From Glaucostegus cemiculus (Eukaryota): a stretch of DNA of 64,000 bases. This document shows, piece after piece, positions 6,135 through 59,786 of this stretch; position 1 is the stretch's first letter, and every line of letters starts with the position of its first letter. The stretch covers positions 11,408,001-11,472,000 of the forward strand of contig CDPCPM010000213.1 in NCBI GenBank assembly GCA_976551045.1, read 5' to 3'. A program made the translations under genes and the position numbers. Under the pieces are notes generated by a model, which did not search any database, was not told the DNA's origin, and was given only the letters and a program-made list of their open reading frames with translations.

Positions 6135-6350
<216 letters not shown>

Positions 6351-7559: not shown

Positions 7560-7960
7560 TGGTTTCCATGCCTGTGGATTTTGGAGTGAAAAATAGACCA
7601 TGGATTCTGTTCTTGATTGCTGTCAGCTACAATTGATCATGCTAGTAAGCAGCATTAGAAACCACAGGATTAAAGAACCAGTGACAGTCCATATAGGAAA
7701 TTGGATGAGGAACAGAAAACAGTGTACTGCTGAATGTTTGTTTTTAAATTGATGGGATATTTACTGTGGTGTTCCCCAAGTTATCAAAGCCATTGATTTT
7801 TGTTTTGACGTGTAACATGACCCAATATTGAAATAATTTCAAAGTCTGTAGACGACATGGAACTGGAAGATGTAGTAAATATTGATGAGCACTGGAATAT
7901 AATTCAGAGGGACATAGAGAGGCTGATGAAAGTAGATGCACAGCACATTAAATTTAACAA
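7560..7960 (+). mobile_element. CR1 LINE reverse-transcriptase fragment
   Basis: Degenerate GVPQG (ggtgttccccaag), FADD-equivalent (tctgtagacgac) and IQRDIERL in ORF 7857..8168. Confidence 0.7.
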
Positions 7961-7964
7961 GCAT

Positions 7965-10510
7965 ACCGTGTTGGATACTGTTTTGGGGGTGGGGATTGGA
8001 GGTTGGAATAGGCTCCCAGGGGAGGACTGCAGCAACAGCCTAGTTCATGGAACTATGGTGGCATTACTGTACAGAAGAGGAGGGGACAAGACTGGGAAAG
8101 TGATTGTGGTAGGGGATTCCATTGTAAGGGGCTCAGATAGGCTAGTGACTGTAGAAATAAAAGAATAGGTCAGCTGAATGGCTGAAGGGATGGTGCAGGA
8201 GGATAGGCTTTAAGTTCTTGGATCACTGGATCTTCTGGAGAAGGTGGGATCTGTACAAGCGGAACAGGTTGCACTTTAACCAGAGCGGGACCAACATTTT
8301 TGCTGGTAGGTTTGCTAGTGCTGCAGAGAAAGGTTTAAACTGAGTTGGCAGGGAAAGGGGCTCGGAGTAGTTATTCAGATGGAGAGGAACAATCACCTCG
8401 AGGATAAATAGCAAGTCCATTTTGCAGAAAAAGTGAGTAGGTGAAAATCAATGCAAGGAGTAGAACTAGTAGATGAACTCAAAGATTTAATTAACAATAT
8501 TGTTGCCATCACTGAGACATAGTTGAAGGATGAGCAGGACTCGCAACTCATTATCACAGGGTTTAGAATTTTCGGGTGAGACAGGAGGGGAATAAAAGTG
8601 GAAGAGGTGTTGCACTGTTATTCAAAGATAGTATTACTTTAGTATTGAGGAAGGATATCCTAGGAGGCTTCTCAAACAAGGTCACATGGATAGAGATTAG
8701 AAACACAATGGTGTTGTCATTTACTGGTGGTGTATTACAGACTGCCCAACAGTCAACAGGTGATAGAGGAACAGATATGTAGTTAGATATTAGAGAGAGG
8801 CAATTAAAAATTAGTACTCTGGAATTTCAGTTTGGCGGATACTAACTGGGGTTACCTTAGGGTTAATGGCTCAGAGGGGGCGGAATGTTTGAGCTGTGTT
8901 CTGGAGAATTTTTTGACGCAGTATGTAGAAGGACAGGATTAATGATAACTTGGAAAGGCAGGGACTAATTAGAGATAGCCAACGTGGCTTTGTTAAGTGC
9001 AGATGCTATCTGACCAATTTGATCAAATTCTTTGAAGAGGTAACAAAGTATATGAATGAGGCCAGGGCAGGAAATGTGATTTACATGGACTTCAGTAAAG
9101 CCTTAGACAACGTGTCATCTGGAAGACAGGTTCAAAAGTTAGGGTCCATGAAATCCAGTGCAAGTTGGCAATCTCAATCCAAAATTGGCTTGGCGATAGA
9201 AGACAGAGGGTGATGGCAATAGGAGGCAGGGGGTCATTTTGTGATTAGATGCCTGTGACTAGAGGCGTCCCACAAGGATCGATGCTGGGACACTTGTTGT
9301 TTGTAATATACGCGAATGATTTAAATGTGAATGTGGAAGGCTAGATCAGTGATTTTGTGGATGAAATAAAGATTGGTGGAGTTGTTGATGGTGTGGCAGG
9401 TCGTCTTAGGCTGCAGGGAGTTGGTAAAATGAGCTGAGAAATGGCAAATGGACTTTAATTCAGACAAATGTGAAGTGATGCATTTTGGGAGCACTAATAA
9501 CGCTAGGACATGCACCATGAATACTTGGGTCTTATTTGAGTATTTTGATTATTTGAGTATTGAGAAACAAAGACCTTGGTGTATGTACAAAGTTCTTGAG
9601 AGTGGCATTGAAGGAAGATAACATGGTTAAGAAAGAATATGGGATACTGCCCTGCATTGGTTGGGCATTCAGTGCAGAAGTTGAGAGGTTATGTTCCACC
9701 TTTCATGCTCAGACCTCAACTGGAGTACAGGCAACCCTCGTGGTACAGCTGGTCAGGTAATGAAAATTCACCCTTACAAAATTCACAAATCACTATCCAA
9801 AAATTTGAGCTACAGAATAAAATTCTCAGAATTTGTGTTGGGGGGGAGCGGAAGTAAATGAACAAATTTTTCAATTTGCATTTCTTGATGCACATGCAAA
9901 TGTCGTGGTTTCGCGTTACGGAAGATCACAATATGGACTGTTCTCTAGGAGTGCAACCCCTCCACCCCCTGCAACACAGTGGTTGTCCGTACTGTGTGCA
10001 ATTCTGATCACCAAGGGATAGGATAGGGCTAGAGAGGATGCAGAAGAGATTCACCCAGATGTTGCCTGGAATGGAGCAGTTCAGTGAGGAGTGATTGTAG
10101 AATCTAGGTCTATTCTTCCTGGAACAGAGAATGTTAAGAGAGGACATTGTTGAGGTATAAAAAATTGTGAGGGGTATTTATAGGGTAAACTGCAGGAAAC
10201 TTTTCCCCATTCGAGAGACGGATAAAACTGGGGGACGTAGGAGTAGGGAAAGGTGGAAGACACATAAAGGGGATATGAGGGGACCTTCACCCAGTGAGTG
10301 GCACCTAGAATGCACTGTCTGAGAGAGTGGCTGAAGCTGGGTCTGTGATGGAATTTTAGTGTCTAGGTAAATATTTGAATTACTAAGGCAGAGAGGACTG
10401 TGGACCAAGTGCTGGGCGATGGGATTACTGCAGAAAGGTGCCCACTAGTCAGTGTGAAAGACTTGGGATGAATGGCCTGTTTCCACACTGAACAATTCTA
10501 TGATTCAATG
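7965..10510 (+). mobile_element. Heavily deleted CR1 LINE keeping pieces of the ORF1 esterase, APE endonuclease, RT and 3' tail
   Basis: Colinear motifs: VIVVGDSIVRG (SGNH esterase), WDLYKR..LH, IVAITET, GRGVALL, GLIRDSQRGFVK..LTNLIKFFEEVT..VIYMDFSKA, ggcgtcccacaaggatc, LEY-CVQF, and the tail aatggcctgtttcc...attctatgattc. Many stops and frameshifts. Confidence 0.85.
9728..9989 (+). mobile_element. Tc1/mariner-superfamily (Tigger/pogo-like) MITE nested in the CR1
   Basis: Interrupts CR1 ctggagTA|ctgtgtgcaa with a TA duplication (9726-9727 and 9990-9991). Imperfect TIRs caggcaaccctcgtg / cacagtggttgtccg. Confidence 0.75.
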
Positions 10511-12189
10511 AGAAATGTTGGATTTGTAGGAAGGATGAAGTGTGGTGAGATGATTTAAATGATATAATTTTAATGAGGGTGCTAGAATAGAGACCCAATA
10601 GTGTACGTACACCAGTTTTTGGACCCAGTAAGGTGAATTTAAACGATTGTTACAACACTTGTGGAATTCGTAGCTTTGTTAATGGAACTTAAGAATACAA
10701 AAATTGTTGTGTTCGGAACTACACTGTCTGAAAAGTTGTTGGAAACAAATCTGGTAATACCTTTCAAATGGAAATATAAAAGTACTGAAGGGAAACGTGG
10801 AAAGACGAAGGACATGGACATTTCAAAGAGCCAATGTGAACACTTTTAGTGAAATAACTTCTACTTGTATCACTATATGATTTTATTTCATATCTGTAAT
10901 GTCCTATTATTCCTGAGTTGAGGCTCACCAGGTAAGTCATTTTAGCAAACTGCCAGACAGTGCTTGTGAAATGGTATCCTAATGTGTTTGCGGGCACCAG
11001 GAAAGAAGGAGTAAAATAATACTGAAACCTAGAGTGTGATGGACATTTATGCATCCCTTTTGTCAGCTGCAACTACCCACACTCCTTTATGAGAGTAAAA
11101 AAGCACAATACAACATATGAGGGGATTTGTAATGCATTGTATGGATCCAATGTTAACTTAACTACTTAGAGTTAAGTGGAGGATAATTTGCTGTCAGTAG
11201 AGTTTAGGGCAATTTGGTTTGTGTAAACTGAGGACTTGGATCTTGTGCATTGGAACAGCAAAACCAAATCTGGCAGTAAGAAGTAACTTTGCTGAACTGT
11301 TTGCCTTTAAATGGTTCAGGACTGCTCAATAACACAGGCCATGCCGGAGGATGTTAATGAACAGAACATCAAAAATTTGCTTGGAATTTAACTTACAAAG
11401 ATAAATTTGTGGTTAAATGTTCAGGTAGATATGGAGGGTAGACAAACTAGAGAACACCACTAGAGGTCAGTGATTTGATTAAGATTTTATGGTCTGGGTG
11501 GAAAGTAAAGCTTATGTAAACTTTACAATAATGCAAGGTAAATATGTGCTCTGGTGTTGTGAATAGAGATTGAGTGAATGTGACTCTCTACAAGGACGAT
11601 TTTTTGCATTCGTTTGCATTGCACCACAAGTCTTGATGGTAGGCTTTTTTTAAATATGCCCGACCTAGTTGATTGCCGATGAACACATGCCATAGCCACT
11701 CATTGTTTTGACTGTCTAAGATTTGTAAACTTTTTTGTGCTGCCCTATATTCATGATCTCTTGTTGCAGGCCCAACATTTTTCCTGTTCAATCCATAAGA
11801 CTGCATGTTAAAAGTTGCCAATCCATTCTCCAGCTGCAGCAGAGATAATCTTGATTTCTTTTGTACATGAACAAACAATAGGTACTTTGAGGGTTGTGTG
11901 AGCAATTGTGATGTGAATATTGATTCTTTTTGTAGTAGTGTAAAATATTAAACCCATTTCATCAAAAGTAAGCTTTTTAATGGTACAGATTACATTATCA
12001 GCCATAACTTTATCTCTAAAAGAAATTGTGATATATTTGTCATTCACTAGACAGGTTCTCAGCTATTTGGGGAGACAGATGGCCTAAATTTTTACAATTC
12101 TCCAAACTACTGAAATGTAGATGCATCTTTCTCTGATTCTTTTTAAAAGTGGCTTTAGATGACTTCATATTTTTATTCTGGAGTGTAAT

Positions 12190-13150: not shown

Positions 13151-13799
13151 TGTCCGAGAAACCAGCAAGAGATATAGTGCTTTCTAGATCGCTGTGACTG
13201 GGCACTGTGGGCCGAAATATGGAAGGTGTTGGAGGTCAAATGTGGGTGTTTGTGGTGCCTCACTCTGCCCCTGGACTCACCATTGGGTCTAGAGGTGTTC
13301 TATCATGCACTAAGCAGAGGGGTCAGATGCACATCACCTCTGGCTCCTCAGCTTTCTATCAACTATGGCTGCTGCATGTTGTCTGACATTTAAATGGGGT
13401 CAGTGACAGTCACTAAAAAAAATAGGTGAAGGTAAATGGTTTGCTTTTGCTCTATTATTAATATTTTCAGATAGTTTGTATCTTGCTGATTTTAAGAGAA
13501 TTTATTATTTGTCATTTTATTTTTTTTGACTACTTTTCAACTGTTTCTAAATGTCACTAATATTAGATTTAGAAACGGTGGAAAAGGCACTTGACAGTAT
13601 GAGTTGTCAGGCAGTCAACTGGGCAGCTTGTGAGCAGAGATTTTAATTTCCACTGTCTGAAGACAAGTCACTGCCCATGTGCCACACCACTTAAAGGACA
13701 GACCATGACAGCAATCTCTGGAGGATATTAGGAGCCATACAAATGCAAAACAAAAGTACGACCCAGATACCAGTGTGGGGGTTTGTACAGCAGGTGCCA

Positions 13800-14935: not shown

Positions 14936-16139
14936 GTGTCATTATTCCACCTTATGGAGCAGATTCAAGAAGCCCTGGAATGATCTCTACTATAGATTTA
15001 CTAATGGGTCCTGAAGTGACATGGGAATTCTGGCTTTGATCCTCAGACCTGCCTGACAGAAAGTCCAGACATTTCTCTGCTGTCTCTTCCTGGGGCCCTG
15101 CCATCCACCTGTCCTGGCTTCCTGCAGCCAGCCTGTTCTTCTCAGGTCTTTGTTCCTTCTCCTGATCCCTTCAACCTACTCCACTGGCTTTGCATTTTAA
15201 TGTTCTGTAATTTCAATTGCTAACATTAAACATGGCTCATCATTACAAAAGAAACCAAACAAGGATGTGTACCTTAAGTCCATTATATTACAGGAAAAAT
15301 GCATATATAGGACATTAATCAATTGAGGGATACTTGTAAGTGGAAAGCCCGGTGACCTTAATACTGATCACTATATGCACCACTATGTGATTCCATTTGC
15401 AATCCTGCTGTTCATTACAGTGCCTGTCCCTTAACTATTGTCTCTTAGCTGTTTTCAAGTCCATGATGCTACAACCAATTTAATCCCATTGTTTAAGTAA
15501 TATTTTTGATTGGAAATTAACCCAATTGATTGAGTCAAATTGGATTACAAAATGTGCTTTTCTCTGGAAAGAAAGAAGCTGAAATCATTATTCTCCTGTA
15601 ATGTTTTGAAATTCAGGCTCAATATGAGGTGCTGTATGTGAAAAGATTTGATGGGAAATTATAGATTTGTTTCATAATTCTGCCTTAATGTATAATCTCT
15701 TTCCGGTGTGCTCTTGTATTCTTTGCTCTTCTGTTCTTTGCATAAGAAGTTAGTAGAGTATGAGATTAATAGAAAAATACCTTTTTAAACAAAAGTCTGT
15801 CTTATATATACTTTAATTTTACCATTAGGTGGTGCTGCATATTCTCTTAATCAAATGACTGTTAAGTTTTCTTTTCAAAAATGAGTTGTCATAATAGCTT
15901 TATATGATTCTTTTTTTCTGTGCAAACTAATAAGTTTGAGAGGTGTTAATACCTTAAGTAACTGCTTGATTAATGGAAATCATATGCATCAGTAGATATA
16001 TTCTAATATTTATTAAAGGAAAAGAAATTAACTGGGTGAAAGCCAATTGCTTGTTTTATGATTGTTTATACCGATTGTTACATTTTACCCGAGATCCAAA
16101 AACAGGACTATGCTGGTAAGCCCACTGTTACTGCTTGGT

Positions 16140-17475
16140 CTTGCCCCACTGAAATAATTATTGCCTCATACCTTGGCACTATCCTCTCTCCCCTTTTCTT
16201 CTCCCTTCCCACTTCACATGCCCTCCACCATTTTGACAACTCCTCATTCCCTGACCCCCACCACTTCATCTTCACTATGGATGTACAATCTACATATCTC
16301 CATTCCCCCATCAGGAAGGTCGCAAAGAACCTTTGCTTCTTTCTGCATTGTTCCAACCAATTCCCCTCCACATGCTTCTACCCTGAACAAATCCATTTTT
16401 TATTCCTCTCACTTTTAATCAAAGGAGTATCCCCAAGCGCTCACATGGGCCCCAGCTATGCATGTCTTTTTGTTGGCTATGTAGGACAGTCCTCGTTCCA
16501 GACCTTCGCTGGTACCAACTCTTTCTCCATTACATTGATGACCGCATTGGTGCTGTTTCCTGTACTCCTGTGGAGCTCATCAGTTTTACCACCTTCTCTA
16601 CTAACTTCCACCTCCCTTTCAAATTCATATGGGCCATTTCTGACACTTGTCCCTCTTTTCTGGATCTCTGTCTCCATCTCAGGAGACAAACTGACATTTA
16701 TTATAAACCCACTGATTCCCACAATTACCATGACTACACCTCTTCCCACCCTGTGTCTTATAAGGATGCCATCCCTTTCTCCCATTTTCTGCCACCGACA
16801 CATCTGCTGTCATTTGCATTTGCGTTCCAAGAGTTCTGAAATGTTACCGTGTTTCAGGAAACGTGCTACCCTTCTACTGTGGTTGATGCAGCCCTCTCTT
16901 ACACTTCCTCCATTTCCCGGATTTATGTTCTCACCCCACCTCCCTCCAAACAGAACAGAATTAGAGTTCCCTTAGTCCTTGCATTTCACCCTACCAGCCT
17001 CCGCATTCAACACATCATTCTTCGTCATTTCTGGCAGCTGTAACGGAATCCCACCACTCGTCACATCTTCCCATTCATTTCGCAGGGTTCACTGCCTCCA
17101 TGACTCCCTGGTTTCTCATCCCTCCCCACTCATCCTGCTCTGTCACTTTCCCCTGCAACAGTAGGAGGTGTAACGCTTGATAGGTGCAACATCCCCACCC
17201 AGCTCCATATGTTCCTCCTTTTTATCCCCGTTATCTGTTGCTTCCACATATCACCCACCTCCCTCTGTCTCCAACTCCACCACTCTTCTTCCATTAGCTA
17301 TCTCCATCTTCCCATCATTCCACCTATCAGTTACTGGCCCATCACACCCCTCCCCTGCCCCTGCTCCTCATACCAGCTACCTTCCCTCTCTACTCTTGTC
17401 TAATGCAGGGTACTGTTATCTCCTCCATTAGTCTGTTTTTTGCTCCAGATTATAGCATCCGCAGTCTCTTGCATC
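16140..17475 (+). mobile_element. Penelope-like element: frameshifted RT fragment plus terminal-repeat remnant
   Basis: PLE RT motifs across frames: FIFTMDVQS, MGPSYACLFVGYV, FLHYIDD, SFLDL, DIYYKPTDSHNY.DYTSSHP...AIPFS, RVPLVL.FHP. The GIY-YIG region appears deleted. Confidence 0.85.
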
Positions 17476-29049: not shown

Positions 29050-30010
29050 GTATATAAGGAGGATTAGACCATTCAGGCCATCGTGTCTGGCCGACTATTC
29101 AATAAGATCATAACTGATCTTCTACCTCAGTGCCACCTTCCAGCACTAAACCCATATAGAGTCATTGAGTTGTACAGCATGGAAACAGGCCCTGTGGCGC
29201 AACTTGTTTATGCCGACCAAAGAGTCTACCCAAGCTAGTCCCTTTTGCCTGCGTTTGGCCCATATCCCTCTAAACCTTTCCTATCCATGTACCTGTCTAA
29301 CTTTTAAACACTGTAATTGTACCCACCTCCACCATTTCCTCTGGCAGCTCATTGCGTATATCTACCGGTCTCTGCCGAAAAACTTACTTCTTGCATCCCC
29401 TTTCAATCTTTCCCCTTTCAGCTTCTATGCCTTCTAGTTTTAGTCTCGTCTACCCTGGGAAAAAGACTTTGACAATCCACCTTATTTGTGCCCCTCATGA
29501 TTTTATACACCTTAATAAGGTCACCCCTCAACTTCCTTTGCTACAGTCCCAATCGATCTGGTCTCTCCTTATAACTCAGGCCCTCCAGTCCTCAATTCAT
29601 GTCTATATATAATATCTAGTTTTCTGTTGTTTAGTAATCTCTTTACAGCACTTTTTCAAATGCCTTCTAAAAGTCCAGATACACTACATCAGTTGTCTGA
29701 CCTTGTACATTCTTCTAGTTACTTCAAAACATTTATTACAGGTATGTCAAACATAATTTTCCCTTTCAGAAATCCACATTGACTCTACCTAATCCAATTA
29801 TTATTTTCTATGTGCGCTGTTACCATTTCTTCAATAGATTCCAGGGCTTTTCCTTCTAGTGATCTCAGGCTAGCTGATCTATAGTTCTCCCTTTTCTCTC
29901 TCCTTAAATAGTTATCTTTCAATCTGTGGAAACAGTTCTAGAATCTATGGAATTTTGGAAGATGGTGGCCGATGAATCAACTGTATTGACAGGTTGTCAT
30001 ATCCTGGGGT
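29050..30010 (-). mobile_element. Two nested or adjacent CR1 fragments, reverse strand
   Basis: Two different CR1 3' ends (ggaggattagaccattcaggcc... at about 29055 and tacagcatggaaacaggccc at about 29170), then reverse RT remnants (aaatgccttctaaaagtccagatacactacatc). Confidence 0.7.
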
Positions 30011-38000: not shown

Positions 38001-40360
38001 ACAGATGACTAATTTCCAATCCAGTCCATTTCTCACGAGAAATGTAATCCTATCCAATTTCCAGAGTGAAATACAACCACCACCATGTTTTTATGTTGAA
38101 TCGTGTCATAATGGAAATTTGGCTAGCTATGAAAATGTGCATTAATCTCAGAAAAGAATGTGCATTTGCTCAATACACCTGTCATGAGTGATCAGCATAA
38201 TGGATTGCTTATTCTAGCTTTGTACCTCAACTGTACAGCACCAAAGCTCCCCACCTAAAACCAGCAGATGTGATAAAACAAATACAAGGGTAGCCAGTCT
38301 TCACACTGGAGAAGGCAGATTTGCTAACTAATTTTTATACAATAGACATGACTGTCCTGGTCTACCTGGTCCAATATTTCCAGGTAGAAAACAATTTCAA
38401 AATCAAAGGATTCTTCCACTGTTAAAAATGAAATATAAAAATATCAGCTTGGAATGGGGGTCAGTGACAAAGAAGCAATGTTTTCCCACACCATTGTGGT
38501 ATCTTTACAGAGAATCTGTGGTGTGGGTAAACAGGGGAAAAAAACAAATTGACTCTATACCAGATTTCATGCCCTCGTTATGTTATTATTCCATTTGGAG
38601 ACTAAACAAGAACATGAAGTTTGAACATTAAATGCACTGTAATTTATAAAACTTACTATATTAATTTATACTGCCATCTACCTGTTCTACTATTTGCAGG
38701 TCCCTGTCTACTCATTCCGCTATTTGTGGAGGTCTATGCCCTCTGCTTCTCTCTGCTTGTTTTGGCATTCCATAAGTAGGAGTCAACCGGAATTCTTGAT
38801 TTGGCAGTTATACATGGAAAATCCAGATATCACCCAAGTATCCCACTTGGGATCCAGCCTATTAACGCAATATTGAAATCTAACCCTTTTGATTTCTCTT
38901 TTGTCTCCCTCTCTACTCTTACACTACATTTCTTGAACTTGAATGTGACTTTGTGTGGACTCCATTGTGAACAAACAAAAGTACATATATATAAACTACG
39001 CAATCACTTTCACTGTGGTTCACAGAGTTCAAACCAGGAAGTATAAAGAAGTATAGTAAGTTCTATAATTTTCAATGCAGTTAATGTTCAAACTTAATGC
39101 CCTGTTTAAACTCCAAATGGAATAATGGCATAACGAGGGCATGAAATCAGATATTTAGAGCCAATTTGTTGTTTTTCCCTGTTTACCCACACCACAGATT
39201 CTCTGTAAAGATACCACACTGGTGTGGTCAAACTTTGTTTCTTTGTCACTGACCCCCATTCCAAGCTGATATTTTTATATTTCATTTTTAACAGTGGAAG
39301 AAATCTTTGATTTTGAAATTGCTTTTTGAATCTTTATCTGTTGTGGGATATCTTTGGCACTACAATGTCTCCCATATGACCATGCTGCTGAAAGATTGGA
39401 ACATACTCAGCCCTATGATTTATATGAAATACCAATACTAGAGCTAGCTAGTTCTGCAGTACTCCAGGGAATAATTGATGGTTGAGCAGCTCATTAATAG
39501 GATTTGGAATAGGAGCCTGAGACACTTCACTTTCAACATTGTGATGGATAAGGATGTTCTTTCTGGAAAAACAGTTGGACAATAGGTTTGACAGTGAACA
39601 AAATTTCAGATATAATCTCTTGAATGTGCCCGCTTGAAGAAAGCTCAGGTCCACATTAATATTACATTACTACTTGATGTAGCAGAGTATGTACTAATGT
39701 GTTAGATGTATCAAATTGATTACAAAGTGATTTATTTAAATACATTAACTTTTGAGCAAGACTTTTGAATTTCTCCTGCTGAGTTTGGGTTGGATGTATC
39801 TTATGAGTGTGAATAGTTGTTCTAAGTCAAAATGTGAAAATCTATAATGTACTTCATATTTAAGTGTTACAATTTAAGTTATTCAGCTTCTATCATCGTA
39901 CTTGTCATCTTTAACTTGTAAAATTGGAAACTTCCAGCAAAAGTTTTACAAGCTTAGTATTTTATATGCAATAGGATCATTCCAGTGAAATATATGATGG
40001 CTATCTGATCTTCTGGTCTGAGAGCTAGTCAAAGAAAAAACATTTGACAAGCTTGCATTGTACTTGGTTCATTATAGTGCAGGCACTTGCACACACAATC
40101 TTCAAAGAATTATGTGCAATCATGGCTTGCTTCATGGCACTTTGATTTTATAACTTGGCTTTTGCAATCTGTTAAACTGCTTTTTAACATGCAATAAAGA
40201 AATTAAAATTCAAAACCCTAGATTGAGATGTTGTAACGAATACTATGTATGTGACAATGAAAATGTACTGATTAGAGAATATTCACCATTTGTTCAGTAA
40301 TGTAATAGTGTTACGAAGTACCTTACTATAGGCAAATATCCCTTTAAGATGTAACAAAAT

Positions 40361-40378
40361 TGGGGGCTCGTCCGGGAT
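40361..40378 (+). promoter_or_regulatory. tRNA-Pro primer-binding site TGGGGGCTCGTCCGGGAT
   Basis: 18-nt match to the classic tRNA-Pro PBS (as in MLV), 4 nt after an LTR-end-like GTAACA (40351-40356). Confidence 0.9.
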
Positions 40379-40393
40379 CTGAAAAAAAAAATT

Positions 40394-41073
40394 TGTTACG
40401 AAACCAGCAACAAAAGAAGCACACCAAGTCATACTTCAGTGTTAAAACTACTTTATTAATAACTACATCCGATAATACATAAAATAAGAATAAAAAGTTA
40501 GTATATTAGTACACAATAAAATGTTAGAATCTTAAACTATAACCCCAAAACTACTCGTCGTGTGTGTGTGGCAAGTTCCTAAACTCAAAGTCCAGGAATT
40601 AGTTCTTAAAGTTCAGTTTAGTAAGCCGTAAGATGAAACACGAATAAAGGCTTCTTCACAAGCACTGATCACCGAAGACAAAACATAGATATAGAGAGAG
40701 ATTAGAGAGGAATCACGAAATCCAAATGTTCTACTCGAAACTCAAACGACACTTCGGGGCTTACTCGGTAGTGACTTTCTCACCCTGAAAACTCCTTGAT
40801 CGTGACTGTCCATGCAAATACCTGTGTTCTTCTACAGGTTAGCAGCAAAGTGAATTCCATCACTTTGTTCCATAGTATCTGCCACTCTGAAGAGCATCCA
40901 AAATGTGGTTGTTCACGCAAACACCTGTGTCCTTCTACAGGCCACCGACAAAGTGAACTCCACTGAACCACTCCAGAAATCCATCCGTGGATTGTAGTGA
41001 CAAACACAGTTACTGTCCTTCATCCATCGACAGAAACAAAACAGGCTGCCATCTCTCCTTCTTCTTTCTCTCC

Positions 41074-41109
<36 letters not shown>

Positions 41110-41236
41110 TATCTTTTTTCTTTCTTGTAATGACCTCATCACGTTAGTCTTATCTTCTGTTGATGTAATACGTTGCACACACACACAATGTCCCATCTTA
41201 AAGGGATATTTGCCTATAGTAAGGTACTTCGTAACA
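40394..41236 (-). repeat. Complete 843-bp LTR (Ty3/Gypsy- or ERV-like), reverse orientation
   Basis: The minus strand reads TGTTACGAAG...GGTTTCGTAACA (TG..CA with short inverted termini). AATAAA (tttatt at 40452-40457) lies about 58 nt from its 3' end, and there are internal direct repeats and a (CT)n tract. Confidence 0.8.
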
Positions 41237-41419
41237 ATAGCAACTGATTTTTTGCAATTTCTGCAAATAAGAATATTATCATCAATTAGAATGATCAAAT
41301 TCTAGTCTAATATTCCTTGTTGTCTTTTGGCTCTGTGTGCAGCACACTAAAGTCACTTTTTAAGGAATAGCCACAAAGTTTGGTATTTGTCCCTGCAGTG
41401 ATAACATGAAGGGTTCTTG

Positions 41420-44304: not shown

Positions 44305-44585
44305 CAGCCTGTCCCCATGTTACGAATGCCCGACTTGTGAACACCTTTGCATGTGAACTGGCTCCTATAATATTATGAAATTCAAAAGTCTGATACACGT
44401 ACACGCTAACAGCAGAACTATTTCTTTTGTCTCTCCACTTTTAGTAATTGTTCTTATCAGTCTTACACACTTTTGATGCCACTCTTTACAATACTGTGGA
44501 GGTACGGTTTCTGTATTGTGATTTATTTTCCAATTTATGAAAACGTATGTAAAAACAGAACCTGTTTGTTTCCTGGGTCTGTCTG
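44305..44585. mobile_element. Decayed Tigger/pogo-like MITE
   Basis: Imperfect TIRs cagcctgtccccatgttacgaa / ttgtttcctgggtctgtctg, followed by TA. Confidence 0.5.
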
Positions 44586-45790: not shown

Positions 45791-45946
<156 letters not shown>

Positions 45947-49441: not shown

Positions 49442-49853
49442 CCGTCAGTCCAAAATTGTCTTTGTTATGAATTGTGCTAGTTTAGCCGGAGCCTAATAAT
49501 ATCTGTGACATTGATTTTCACACGAATATCTAATGTTTGCAAATGTTATGGAATACTCTGATGACAAAATCTGTTCTACCTTGGATTTGATATTGTGGGG
49601 AGTGGGGGGGGGGGTGTATTGTGGTGGCTGTGTGTTCTTAGAAAATGGCCCAAGTTGTGATTTTTTTTTTCCACAACGCGAACCCTTGTCAGCTGGACAT
49701 GCTTCAAAAAACAAGATTTGGAAAAAAAATGTGTATTACCTTTTCCCCTGTATAACTTCCATAAGAGTGAATGCTATTCCATATCTCAAATTTTTGGGTA
49801 GTGATTTGTGTAGATTTCTGTTACCCAGACAGCCATAACAAGGGGGTTGCCTG
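49442..49853 (-). mobile_element. Tigger/pogo-like MITE, same family as 9728-9989 in the opposite orientation
   Basis: Ends ggggttgcctg|TA (reverse complement of TAcaggcaacc). ctcaaatttttgggtagtgatttgtg is nearly the reverse complement of cacaaatcactatccaaaaatttgag at about 9785. Left boundary uncertain. Confidence 0.65.
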
Positions 49854-53169: not shown

Positions 53170-53435
53170 TATCCAGGATGTTACCTGGATTAGAGAGTAT
53201 TAGCTACAAGGAGAGGTTGGACAAATTTGGGTTGTTTTCTCTGGAGTGTTGGAGGCTGAGTAGCAACCTGATAGAAGTGTATAAAATTATGAGAGGCATA
53301 GATAGGGTAGATGGTCAGAGTCTTTATTCCAGGATGGAAATGTCAAATACCAGAGGATGTAGCTTGTAGGTAAGAGGGGAAAGTTTAAAGGAGATGTATA
53401 AAGCACGTTTTTAAAATAGAGTGGTAGGTGCCCTT
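53170..53435 (+). mobile_element. CR1 ORF2 C-terminal fragment
   Basis: ORF 53178..53369 MLPGLESISYKERLDKFGLFSLECWRL..NLIEVYKIMRGIDRVD is a typical CR1 ORF2 end. Confidence 0.85.
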
Positions 53436-54501: not shown

Positions 54502-54738
<237 letters not shown>

Positions 54739-55888
54739 TAATGTGAATATTTGCATCTCAGTGGGGTCTGTCATGCAAGAAATTTGATTCGGAGGTCACG
54801 TGCTTGTACAGAACTAGTTTTGCTTAAAAAATTGCTGTTTAGGTTGCCTATTCTCTTATATCCCTCAGAAGAAACTACAGGCAGAGGAATGTAGTGATCT
54901 GCCCTTGCACTGGCCTCTGATAAGTTTCATCAGCTTTCCGAAATGGTGGGAAAAATATCTTTCTGTTGTGTGTTATTCGATACAATGGCACCTCTAGAAA
55001 GAAACTGGAAAAAGTACATGATCTGAGGTTCTTACAACTGCCTGCATCTTCTCTCATCAATTTTTTGCATGACTGGGATTCTGCAATTTATAATTCTAAA
55101 AAATTCCTAGTTGGAAAAAATGTGTGATAAAGAGAACAGATTTAAGTGACAGCTATCTTTTAGTTTTTTTGAAAAAAAAGATTTATTTTAAATCCATGTG
55201 GCTTTGAATTTATTGAGTTTTTCTTTGTCATTCTGATTCAAATTGAGAAATACAATGCTATGTCAAGGAAGTGCCTTTTGAGTGTTATTTTTTTCCTTTG
55301 TTTTGAAACATACAGGATGCTCTCTTCAGTGCTCTTCAAGTCTTGTGCTTCTGCCAAGATGTTTTGATCCATTATGACAGATCTTCGTCTGGTGTTGTAG
55401 CTTCTTTTTAAACTGTTTGACCTTCTGCATAATGCTTGGATTTCTTTTTTTTTTATTGATCTTAATTGTCAAGGATTGCTGTCCCTGCTTTTCTTTAGGT
55501 GGCAATGCCTCACAAACATGCCTCAAGTGAACTGTCGCTACTCATTATGTAAACAGAAAATGGAAGTACATAACAGATCCATCAATAACTGAAAAGGTGG
55601 TTTCAGGTGTGGACTCCTTTATTAGAACAGTCCTAATGGTGGATCTGTACCTGAAACATTAGCCCCTGTTCTCCATGCTGATGGACCTATTATGTATTCT
55701 CTGCATTTTCTGTTTTTACTTTTGCAATTTTTCCTTTTTTACCTCTTGCTAATTGGCTTCTTTCTAGCTTTAGCACTTGATGCCTGTGATTTTTAACTGT
55801 CAAAAATGAATTGCCCGTTTTCTTGTTGAAACTAAATACCAATCTGTCACCTGCAGAATGAGTTGACTTATGTTTTGTTTTGGTACAG

Positions 55889-58800
55889 TGCCCCAGGAAG
55901 TGGCCCAATGTTTAAAACTACAACTGTGGCTGTTGACGAAGATGGTAATGACAGAAAAGTTGTCAGTGCAAGTGATAATACTGGAGGAAAGACAAGTGGT
56001 CCCACATCGCCTTCTGTTAACAGGACCATATCTGACAACACACTGGAAGATAGCAGAGGAGAGACTGACAACACAAGCCATTGTGTTACTGGAAGCTCTG
56101 CAGGATTGGGTCAAAACAACCAGCCAGTGCAACCTTTTAACATCAGTCAGCTTAAGAGCAATTCTGCCATTCCCTTACAGAAGCTAGGAGTGTCATTTTC
56201 TTTTGCAAAAAAGGCACCAGTCAAGCTTGACGTTTCAGCTTCAGTGTTCAGTGATGTTGCAGAAGAGCCCAATGAATCTGAAGCAACAAACCCAGATGAA
56301 AAAATGTCTTCTGGTCAAGGGTCACCAAAATCAATGGAGGCTGAAACTGCATTAATCTCTGATAAGACTGAAGGGGCTAGTCAATCAGAAAGTGATAATG
56401 ACTCTATAAATAGTACACTATCAAAATTGAAAAAGATGATGAAGAAAGAAGATGATGTCTGTCAGTCAGAACCAGAGTATTATCATTACATTCCTCCTGC
56501 ACATTGTAAAGTGAAACCCAACTTTCCATTTCTGTTGTTTATGAAAGCAACAGAAGAGTCACATAAGTGTAGTAACAAGAAAAGCTTAGAGACCACGAAA
56601 AGTAACCCTGATTTACAAAATACTTTAAAGTTTCAGGAAAGCAAAGAAGGAGAACACACAGAAAATGAGATGCCAGCTTTGCAGCAGAGCAGCAACACTG
56701 CAGATGGTGCAAGAGACCCAGACCTCAAAGAAGCTAAGTCTCCTGAGACTGTGAGCAAGGAGAACTGTAACACCACAACATTAAAACCTAGTGCTTGTGA
56801 AGAAGGAAAGCAAAGCAGTTTAGCAAATGAAGAAGTCCTCAATGGGCCTAAACAACCAACAGGGCCATTTTTTCCGGTGTTGGGCAAAGATGAAAGTACT
56901 ACTCTTCAGTGGCCCTCAGAGTTATTAATGATTACGAAGAGTGAACCGCGCATCTCTTATAGTTGCAATCCACTCTACTTTGAATTCAAACTGACTAGGA
57001 ATAGGGATACCAAAGGAAAAAACAAAGAGAGACACCATGAGAATTCACATGAACAAAATGCACAGAATATGGATCAGGATTCACAGGAGAAGACTAACAT
57101 GAACACCAGTAAAGCTGCATCGAAGACTAGCTTAAACACAGTAGGAAGCGAGGTAGATGTGAAGCCTCAAGAACAGCCTATCCCGACGGTAAGCAAATGT
57201 GAAGCCCAAGTTGGTGAAAGTGACAAAAGCACCAATAAAAAAGACAAGGGCATGAAATCACATAAGCATAAAAAGAAAAAGAAGCACAAAAAATCAGGAA
57301 AACATTTGAAGGAGAAAACTACGGAGGAAAAGGAAAAGCAGAAGGATAGTGAAACGCGTGATGAGACGTCAAAAAAAAGGAAAAAGCGTAAACGCAAAAA
57401 TAAAAACTTAGATGAGAAAAGCAAAGACGCTGGCTTAGAGCTTTCTGTTCCGATGCCTGCAATTAAGGCTACAGAGGAAAGCAGCCTCACACCGAAGAAA
57501 AGGCACAGATCACAAGATTGCCAGTATTCAGCTGTGACTGTTGAAGATGGTAGTAGAAAGGAAGATGTCTCTGAGGAACCCATTAGTAAAAAACAGAAGA
57601 CAGGTTCTTGTAGTGAGTTAAGGAAACGAATATCTGGTCGGAAGGATAGCCGAAGCAGGCATAGGAGCAGAGACAGCAGCCGAGATGAAGAATCTGATAG
57701 CTATGATGAATCTCATAGAAAACGATCCAGACACAAGTCATCGTCCCATTACAGTGATGATTATGATTCAAGAAGTGACAGAAGCTACTCGAGAAGATCA
57801 AGAAGGCATCATTCATCATCCCAGCGGTCATCGCGTAGGTCATATTCTTCCGGATCTGATGTATCGTCAGACTGCAGTAGATACAGTCGTAGAAGAAGCT
57901 ATTCTGCCAGTTACAGTGACTACAGTGACAGATCAGATCACTCTAAGCGATCTCATGATTCAGATTATGACTATAGAAGGTCAAGGCACCATGGGAAAAA
58001 GCACAAATATTCTTCTTCAGATGATGACTATAGACGGAGCAGAAGCAGATCCAGAAGTAGCAGCAGGGAAAGTACTCGGACCGTCAGTAGAACACGCAGC
58101 CGAAGTCGAACTCGTAGCAGCAGTCATAGCAGGAGCCGAAGCAAACGACGCAGTCAAAGCACAACGCAACGGAGCTGGAAGCGGAGCCGAAGCTACAGCC
58201 GCAACCGCAGGGGCAGTACAAGGCACCGTACCTCCCGAAGATCGATTTCAAGGGACAAAGGATCACATAGCCATGATAGCTCTGGGGATAGACGGTCCAG
58301 TCGAAGAAACTCTAGTCGATCTTTTTCGCGAGATAGGGTATATCGATCAAAATCTCCATGTTACAGCCGAAGCAGAATGTCAGGCAAAAAAGATGACTAC
58401 TCGAAAAAGGAAGAAAACAAAGGAGATGGAACAAAATCAGGTAGTTCTTTCCACAGGAATCTCAGCGGCACCTCCACCAGTTCAGGAAAAGGGCACGTGG
58501 AAAGTGAGCAAACGCCAGAAGAGAGGAACTCCTTAACAGCTAAACAGTTGTTGGAAAAAATTCAGTCTAAGAAGTTTGAAAAGAAATCTGAAACAATTAA
58601 TGAAACTGCATCTACATCTAATAAAGTAGGAATTAAATTAAAAGATCCCCCACAGGGTTATTTTGGGCCTAAACTTCCCCCAGCTTTGGGCAATAAGGCA
58701 TTGCTTCCTTTAATAGGAAAACTACCGACAGTGAAAAAGCCTGCAACAAAGAAGTCTGAAGATCTTTGCTCAGAGAAGGGGGACAAAGACGATGAGCTGT

Positions 58801-59786
58801 ACCTTGCAGAGCCTAAAGATGTGACAAAGGAGGAAGGCGGTCAGCTATCTAATTGGATGATACAGGAAGAGATTCAAAGCAGAGAAGAAAAATCTGACGG
58901 TGAAGAAGCATCAGGTGGAAATGAGAAAATCCAAACCACTTCTTGTGAAAATCAGTTTGTTCATAAAGGTTTTGTGCTTGATACTCAAGCCATCTCAGAT
59001 ACCTATATTTCTGATGTAAGCACACCAACCGAAGTCATCACAAAGCCTTCAGAATTAGGAGCACCAGATGGTGATGAGGCTGTTATGATGCATTTTGCGC
59101 CAGATCCGGAGCCATTCTCCAATTATATTCCACAAGCTGAAGTACAAGAAATTGAAGAGGATTCCCAAGAGGGTGCAGATTCATCAGTGGCTCCACTTGA
59201 CAGACAGCCTATAACATTCACTCCTGAAGAAATGGAGAAATATAGCAAACTACAGCAGGCGGCTCAGCAGCACATCCAGCAGCAACTTCTAGCTAAACAA
59301 GTGAAGACTTTCCCTACCTCAACTGCCATTGCTCCTGCACCAACTCTCCAGCAATTTCACATTCAGCAGCCATCGGCAGCTGCGACAGCAACATCAATCA
59401 CTACTGTCCACCATGCAATATTACAGCATCAGGCAGCTGCGGCTGCTGCCATGGGTATACATCCACACGCCCATCCACAGACTCTTGCTCAGATCCATCA
59501 CATACCCCAGCCTCACCTAACCCCAATTTCTCTGTCCCATATTACGCCGTCTATTTACCCTACTCATCCTGCCACTTTTCTAACTAGCCACCCAATACAT
59601 ATTATACCTGCGTCAGCCCTCCACGCAGGACCTCTGGCCCTTCACCCGGTCCCACATGCACTCTATCCAGCTTTGTTTGCCCCACGACCTGCAGGAGCAG
59701 GTGCTTCTGCTCTTCACCTCCATCCTTTCCTCCATCCTATCTTTTCGAGTCAGGAGCTCCAGCATCCTCCCAGTCATGGCACTTGA
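55889..59786 (+). CDS. GPATCH8: GPATCH8 large terminal coding exon (3898 coding nt): APGSGPMFK..., Lys-rich basic segment, Arg/Ser-rich domain, C-terminal Gln/Ala/His/Pro-rich tail ending LQHPPSHGT*
   Basis: Lies in ORF 55863..59786; acceptor tgttttgttttggtacag ends at 55888 and the phase matches the previous exon. Recognisable motifs: EPEYYHYIPPAHCKVKPNFPFLLFMKA, FFPVLGKDESTTLQWPSELL, LKDPPQGYFGPKLPP, QPITFTPEEMEKYSKLQQAAQQHIQQQLL. Confidence 0.96.

Follow-up and report, generated by a model that had tools for sequence, protein, structure and literature searches.

How does a segment derived from a long terminal repeat (LTR) retroelement come to sit in a chromosome with the outline of a DNA transposon? 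This question is raised by a unit at positions 40305-41240 of a 64,000-nt window of the Glaucostegus cemiculus genome (GenBank assembly GCA_976551045.1, contig CDPCPM010000213.1, forward-strand positions 11,408,001 to 11,472,000), which is the whole stretch of DNA analysed here and to which all coordinates refer. The unit lies in a long intron of GPATCH8. A first-pass annotation, made from the sequence alone, had described it as an LTR-retroelement derivative with terminal inverted repeats (TIRs) and a single target site duplication (TSD), and had offered two origins for it: a one-off aberrant complementary DNA (cDNA), or a non-autonomous family mobilized by a Gypsy- or Ginger-type integrase. 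The anatomy was confirmed as real and exact, and the unit is best viewed as an unusual, precisely formed kind of LTR-retroelement insertion that most likely represents a dead-end by-product.

Read along the plus strand, the unit opens with the TSD ATAG (40305-40308), and the same 4 nt close it on the right (41237-41240), so that one 4-bp duplication brackets the whole structure as had been claimed; the chance that two random 4-mers of the window agree is P 0.0056. Next to the left TSD is a collapsed LTR (40309-40356), in which LTR positions 1-43 (the U3 start) are joined to the last 5-6 nt (the U5 tip) with 795 bp gone and 1 nt of microhomology at the deletion. The fusion to GTAACA reported earlier is present, but the piece measures 48 bp rather than 43 + 6, as a single G is common to both parts and the junction can be read as 43 + 5 or 42 + 6. 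It is followed by the 4-nt spacer AAAT between U5 tip and primer-binding site (PBS; 40357-40360), an 18-nt PBS for tRNA-Pro (40361-40378), CTG (40379-40381), a run of ten A residues (A10; 40382-40391) and TT (40392-40393). A complete LTR of 843 bp (40394-41236) then occupies the minus strand, with its U5 end pointing inward and its U3 end at the right TSD. Each of these parts was found where it had been placed. The outer arms of the unit (40309-40351 and 41194-41236) are identical inverted repeats, 43/43 as first reported, with a BLASTN E value of 7.6e-15 in a self-comparison of the window, and the termini of the 843-bp LTR form a perfect 9-bp inverted repeat of their own. Both outer junctions end precisely in CA next to the 4-bp TSD. 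After the PBS only 15 nt precede the inverted LTR, and no recognizable internal-domain sequence is present. The derivation from an LTR retroelement was upheld, as the unit combines a TG...CA LTR, a poly(A) signal, a tRNA PBS and a TSD within the 4-6 bp range.

The PBS matches tRNA-Pro at 18/18 positions, in line with its earlier description as perfect, and is the sole such site in the window at ≤3 mismatches; in shuffled sequences a match was obtained in 0/100. The same 18-mer is the core of a murine leukaemia virus PBS probe (PMC4587795) and the start of a reverse primer for human tRNA-Pro-TGG (PMC12217144). The bases following the PBS are C-T-G-A-A in the window and T-T-G-A-A in the tRNA-Pro complement, as given by the primer of PMC12217144. 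In this post-PBS extension (40379-40383), the initial mismatch would lie opposite tRNA A58 (numbering taken by way of PMC11251516), and the next 4/4 bases match the tRNA-Pro complement, carrying the match to about position 54. Two of these four matching bases double as the first As of the A-run.

The two ends of the LTR have 9 bp in common and the PBS comes after a 6-nt tip that occurs at either of them, so the PBS cannot by itself fix which end is U3. The polyadenylation context is more informative. On the minus strand, 58 nt separate the AATAAA at 40452-40457 from the LTR end; the sequence upstream of it is 54% T and that downstream 76% G+T, and on both context measures this signal ranks first of the 140 AATAAA sites on the two strands of the window. 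In the plus direction there are three AATAAA sites, located 588-742 nt from the end and in poor context. The other half of the LTR contains two 58-nt direct repeats (40802-40962; 79% identical, spacing 103), which may be an enhancer-like repeat, and a TC/TCTG microsatellite (41052-41109), and such a combination of direct repeat and microsatellite is typical of the U3 half of an LTR. Because the poly(A) context fixes the orientation, the full LTR is read as antisense to GPATCH8, and the earlier view that both outer ends are U3 ends is supported beyond the shared 9 bp.

CpG retention suggests that the insertion is young. The observed/expected CpG ratio of the LTR is 0.67, compared with a mean of 0.19 and a maximum of 0.41 in comparison tiles, these being 68 of 75 same-size tiles after those over the last GPATCH8 exon and the unit had been dropped (two of the dropped exon tiles reached 0.81 and 0.59). 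The perfect arms, the other sign of youth put forward in the first-pass annotation, are weak evidence of age because 0/43 differences bounds divergence only below 6.7%, and they were dropped as proof of youth.

Apart from the A-run and TT, the content of the unit is that found in plus-strand strong-stop DNA, and its boundaries coincide with landmarks of reverse transcription, namely the beginning of U3 on either outer side, the tip of U5 with its spacer, and the 3' end of the PBS. Reverse transcription has been reported to stop one base short of m1A58 and, with tRNA-Lys3, one base short of position 54 (PMC11251516, PMC8599865), and read-through products fail in plus-strand synthesis according to a figure legend in PMC11251516. 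As the match to tRNA-Pro runs to about position 54, near these published stops, the turn-around of the unit sits where strong-stop DNA would end. In two respects the unit departs from such DNA, which is a transient intermediate: it is joined head-to-head with a second LTR copy, and it is integrated. The explanation we favor, while giving it no better than even chances, is that a reverse-transcription by-product formed by fold-back or cross-priming at the PBS was inserted via two U3 ends as a one-off dead end, which is the aberrant-cDNA option of the first-pass annotation.

In this explanation, the parent would be a tRNA-Pro-primed LTR retroelement, either Gypsy-type or an endogenous retrovirus (ERV), with its own integrase performing the insertion. 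Plus-strand strong-stop DNA, comprising U3-R-U5, the spacer, the PBS and a handful of bases reaching to the second tRNA stop, would miss the normal jump. Its 3' end with the A-run would then act as primer where U5 meets the spacer in a plus-strand LTR, located either on the same molecule, after fold-back, or on another strong-stop DNA. Within the A10-TT turn-around linker (40382-40393), the TT complements the first two spacer bases. The primed strand would copy the LTR back to the U3 start, and fill-in would yield a linear molecule, bounded at either side by a U3 end, that integrase would treat as a normal substrate, producing the 4-bp TSD. Integrase could accept two U3 ends because 9 bp are common to the tips of U3 and U5. 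One arm may have lost its 795 bp through a jump across the 9-bp panhandle of the LTR during reverse transcription or, alternatively, later, while the long palindrome was being stabilized. When folded as single-stranded DNA at 20-37 °C, the LTR termini are predicted to form 9 pairs at 0.83-1.0 probability, a figure obtained without a shuffled control. For human immunodeficiency virus (HIV), host-mediated joining of aberrant ends usually leaves much larger duplications or deletions (PMC5041404); the exact CA ends and 4-bp TSD fit two-ended integrase action. We infer the mechanistic steps, their order and the single-copy status of the product.

Several observations weigh against this explanation. 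Retroviral genomes conserve complementarity beyond the 18-nt PBS (PMC8599865), and the post-PBS extension may for that reason be ordinary leader, and the A-run may be ordinary leader sequence as well. Within the extension, the T and G alone do not depend on the A-run (P about 0.06). Just 1-3 base pairs would support priming, and for a complete copy of the spacer the linker lacks one T. The 71-nt junction centre folds no better than its shuffles (z +1.17), and a strong hairpin at the junction was dropped on this result. At the deletion, true microhomology amounts to 1 nt, and an imperfect 4/6 match is equalled at 46/837 LTR positions, for which reason it was no longer considered meaningful. Because the LTR tips share 9 bp, the TSD cannot prove that two U3 ends were integrated, and an instance of such a product integrating in vivo was not found in the literature searched.

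The same shared 9 bp, which raise the weightiest objection, lend some plausibility to a rearrangement after insertion, which we regard as rather unlikely overall. A normal provirus would have inserted at ATAG; immediately beyond its PBS, a break or a stalled fork would have folded back and reverse-copied the 5' LTR, and the product would have been rejoined to the 3' LTR tip via the 9 bp; in a variant, the leader received a second, oppositely oriented copy and deletions followed. The 9-bp terminal inverted repeat of the LTR, which is predicted to pair, would offer microhomology for the rejoining and preserve the TSD. For this reason, the TIR outline described in the first-pass annotation is present, but the claim that the unit integrated with this outline goes a step beyond the observation, as a later rearrangement through the 9-bp repeat could have kept the TSD. 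Bao et al. also propose an opposite LTR pair by nested insertion (PMC2836005), and a guppy ERV with an "inverted LTR", the nearest item we found in the literature, is mentioned in passing in PMC5210030. Against a later rearrangement, three junctions are required, the fold-back would have to be centred no more than about 15 nt from the end of the PBS and 2 nt from the tip of U5 in an element several kilobases long, and no internal sequence is left. Autointegration we consider very improbable. Here, the processed U5 end of a cDNA would attack the opposite strand of that molecule's leader at a point 37 nt beyond the 5' LTR, in the manner of an inversion circle; the resulting LTR-PBS-LTR palindrome would then be released and integrated. 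The inner junction starts exactly at the terminal CA of the LTR, provided that the AA after it belongs to the leader and not to the spacer. Inversion circles, which likewise have an LTR end joined to internal sequence on the opposite strand, have been established in HIV-1 and in Arabidopsis elements such as SISYPHUS (PMC7197481, PMC2644782; Ty1 as cited there). Both articles call these circles non-productive; they are extrachromosomal dead ends, in contrast to a chromosomal unit with a clean TSD. Furthermore, two extra cuts would be required, as one of the U3 ends would lie internally and the other would have been joined already.

Two further rivals question the orientation and the assembly, respectively. 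As the tip before the PBS is common to both LTR ends and the PBS leaves the orientation free, the unit could be read in the plus direction as a minimal element resembling a terminal-repeat retrotransposon in miniature (TRIM), ordered LTR, PBS, purine run as polypurine tract (PPT) and LTR, with the 5' LTR deleted and inverted via the 9-bp panhandle and the outer ends derived from U5. Eleven purines (G + A10) and TT stand ahead of the inner TGT, although the LTR they precede is antisense by its poly(A) context, and the plus-direction AATAAA sites are 588-742 nt from the end compared with 58 nt for the top-ranked site in the minus direction. A nearly pure A-run is also unusual as a PPT. Fish have animal TRIMs with 4-bp TSDs (PMC10886601), and the unit resembles the TRIM Helenus in being short and non-coding, with an LTR-PBS architecture and such a TSD. 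TRIM LTRs are direct, however, with a PPT before the 3' LTR, whereas those of the unit are inverted, and we consider the TRIM-like reading hardly probable. An assembly or library artefact, in whole or in part, was judged quite improbable. Long palindromes are difficult to sequence and assemble, and the likelier form of such an artefact would be a true near-perfect palindrome of 1.7 kb collapsed to the short left arm. Against this, the 64-kb window contains no N (count 0), the junctions lie at biological landmarks, and the flanks are unique, share one TSD and are not mirror images of each other (best local score 7 over 200 bp). A chimera from a fold-back read was dropped because the flanks are unmirrored.

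The second origin offered in the first-pass annotation requires more copies than one. The unit resembles Ginger transposons because its two LTR ends are identical. Ginger1 elements have TGTNR ends, TIRs of 40-270 bp and the TSD CCGG (75%) or CCGT/ACGG (24%), and Ginger2/Tdd elements have TIRs of about 50-180 bp and a preferred 6-bp target, RTATAY (PMC2836005). With ends reading TGTTA, a 43-bp TIR and a TSD 4 bp in length, the unit conforms to the Ginger1 outline, but the TSD sequence ATAG does not. Compared with Ginger2, the TIR is 43 bp and the 6-bp context agrees with RTATAY at the outer two positions only, on either strand; as RTATAY is a preference, a single site is not decisive on its own. 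Moreover, the unit differs from both groups in carrying a PBS and a whole LTR, and no transposase was detected, Pfam giving 0 matches for the 4 overlapping frames of ≥68 aa. With a context that fits neither CCGG/CCGT nor RTATAY and no transposase detected in the unit, the proposed Ginger link was not sustained and membership was rejected.

A multi-copy non-autonomous family that moves as DNA, its paired U3 ends being read as TIRs by a Gypsy- or Ginger-type integrase, has little probability in our assessment. It is equally far-fetched to see a young ray family whose U3 ends now act as TIRs, that is, an LTR retroelement turning into a TIR transposon; Bao et al. 2010 hypothesised this conversion for Ginger1, with TIRs perhaps from two opposite LTRs, in a chain of events they call unclear (PMC2836005). 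The outline (TGTNR ends, TIR length and 4-bp TSD) would suit either view, as would the youth suggested by CpG retention. Counter to these points, the target fits neither Ginger preference, and PMC2836005, in the portion consulted, records vertebrate Ginger solely in the form of domesticated genes and describes excision as unexplained. RNA from the full LTR would meet the PBS backwards and without a purine tract, so ordinary retrotransposition would be closed to the unit, and movement at the DNA level would require an excising enzyme. Self-comparison of the 64-kb window by BLASTN revealed no second copy; a lone 9-mer at 44318 lies outside any LTR context. Among searches that are nearly blind to non-coding ray DNA, and thus uninformative on copy number, the translated LTR frame produced 0/21 candidates at E≤10 against 90% protein clusters, the junction frame 0/6 against longer proteins and one match against 1.84 billion representatives (26% identity, too low for a DNA-level copy), and an exact 24-mer scan of GTDB genomes returned 0. 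In a milder version, the parent repeatedly yields U3-U3 strong-stop products that give independent insertions with differing junctions; this is unlikely, though not to be neglected.

A solo LTR, or a provirus with an internal deletion, from a tRNA-Pro-primed Gypsy element or ERV has these features in common with the unit: a TGT...ACA LTR with a short terminal inverted repeat, a poly(A) signal near the 3' end, a 4-nt spacer, an 18-nt PBS and a 4-bp TSD. In proviruses, solo LTRs and TRIMs, however, one outer end is U3 and the other U5 and LTRs are direct, whereas here the LTR pieces are inverted relative to each other, each outer end is U3, and a PBS persists without an internal domain or PPT. 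DIRS1-type elements share inverted terminal LTR-like repeats but are described as using a tyrosine recombinase. The unit further differs from them in having both a PBS and a TSD; to our knowledge, DIRS elements have no TSD and no tRNA PBS. In the literature searched, which gave little coverage of subscription journals and of Repbase/Dfam entries, we found neither an account of such a structure nor an LTR family from rays to which it could be matched.

If the favored explanation of a strong-stop by-product is true, the unit would be a germ-line fossil of a reverse-transcription intermediate, integrase would be able to insert DNA with U3 at both ends in vivo, and the TIR-plus-TSD outline of a DNA transposon would have emerged from an LTR element in a single step. 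The locus would represent a concrete opposite-LTR structure of the sort suggested by Bao et al. 2010, reached by a different route. It also carries a warning for annotation, as a TIR-and-TSD finder would label the unit a miniature inverted-repeat transposable element. The value of the locus would rise sharply only if further copies exist.

With regard to its surroundings, the unit is a single non-coding intronic insertion. The open reading frame at 55836-59786 corresponds to the last exon of GPATCH8, whose best named relative is from Pristis pectinata (96% over the region searched; 97% over 1298 aa), which makes the host a sawfish or another closely related ray. GPATCH8 coding exons were placed on the plus strand at about 2025-2096, 6228-6320, 45791-45934, 54535-54669 and 55890-59786, and the intron holding the unit (6321-45790) separates the second and third of these. 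In the GPATCH8 pre-mRNA the PBS would be sense-oriented, and the 43-bp arms, predicted to pair as single-stranded DNA, could form a short double-stranded stem in the intron.

Other repeats in the window are distinct from the unit. About 1 kb upstream, a separate and older inverted-repeat element (38388-39325) has arms of ~290 bp that are 89% complementary and 361 bp apart; its ends are eroded, a TSD was not recognised, and it looks like a non-autonomous DNA transposon. Rfam and ARAGORN yielded no matches over the window, and Pfam yielded 4 weak matches below cut-off, none in the unit, from 141 frames of ≥68 aa (frames inside the last GPATCH8 exon excluded). Translations of the frameshifted frames at 16040-17400 resemble what we take to be a Penelope-type reverse transcriptase, which had no Pfam match. 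A G-skewed stretch extends over 7800-11000, and within it the frame at 7821-8168, also lacking a Pfam match, resembles the esterase motif of a CR1-type long interspersed nuclear element (LINE) ORF1. Repeat pieces in opposite orientation were found at 29378-29521 and 53266-53412 (72% over 148 bp) and at 9784-9825 and 49769-49810 (86% over 42 bp); these short dispersed pieces are probably old remnants of LINEs or short interspersed nuclear elements (SINEs). Short imperfect palindromes are located at 13533-13586 and 2875-2905.

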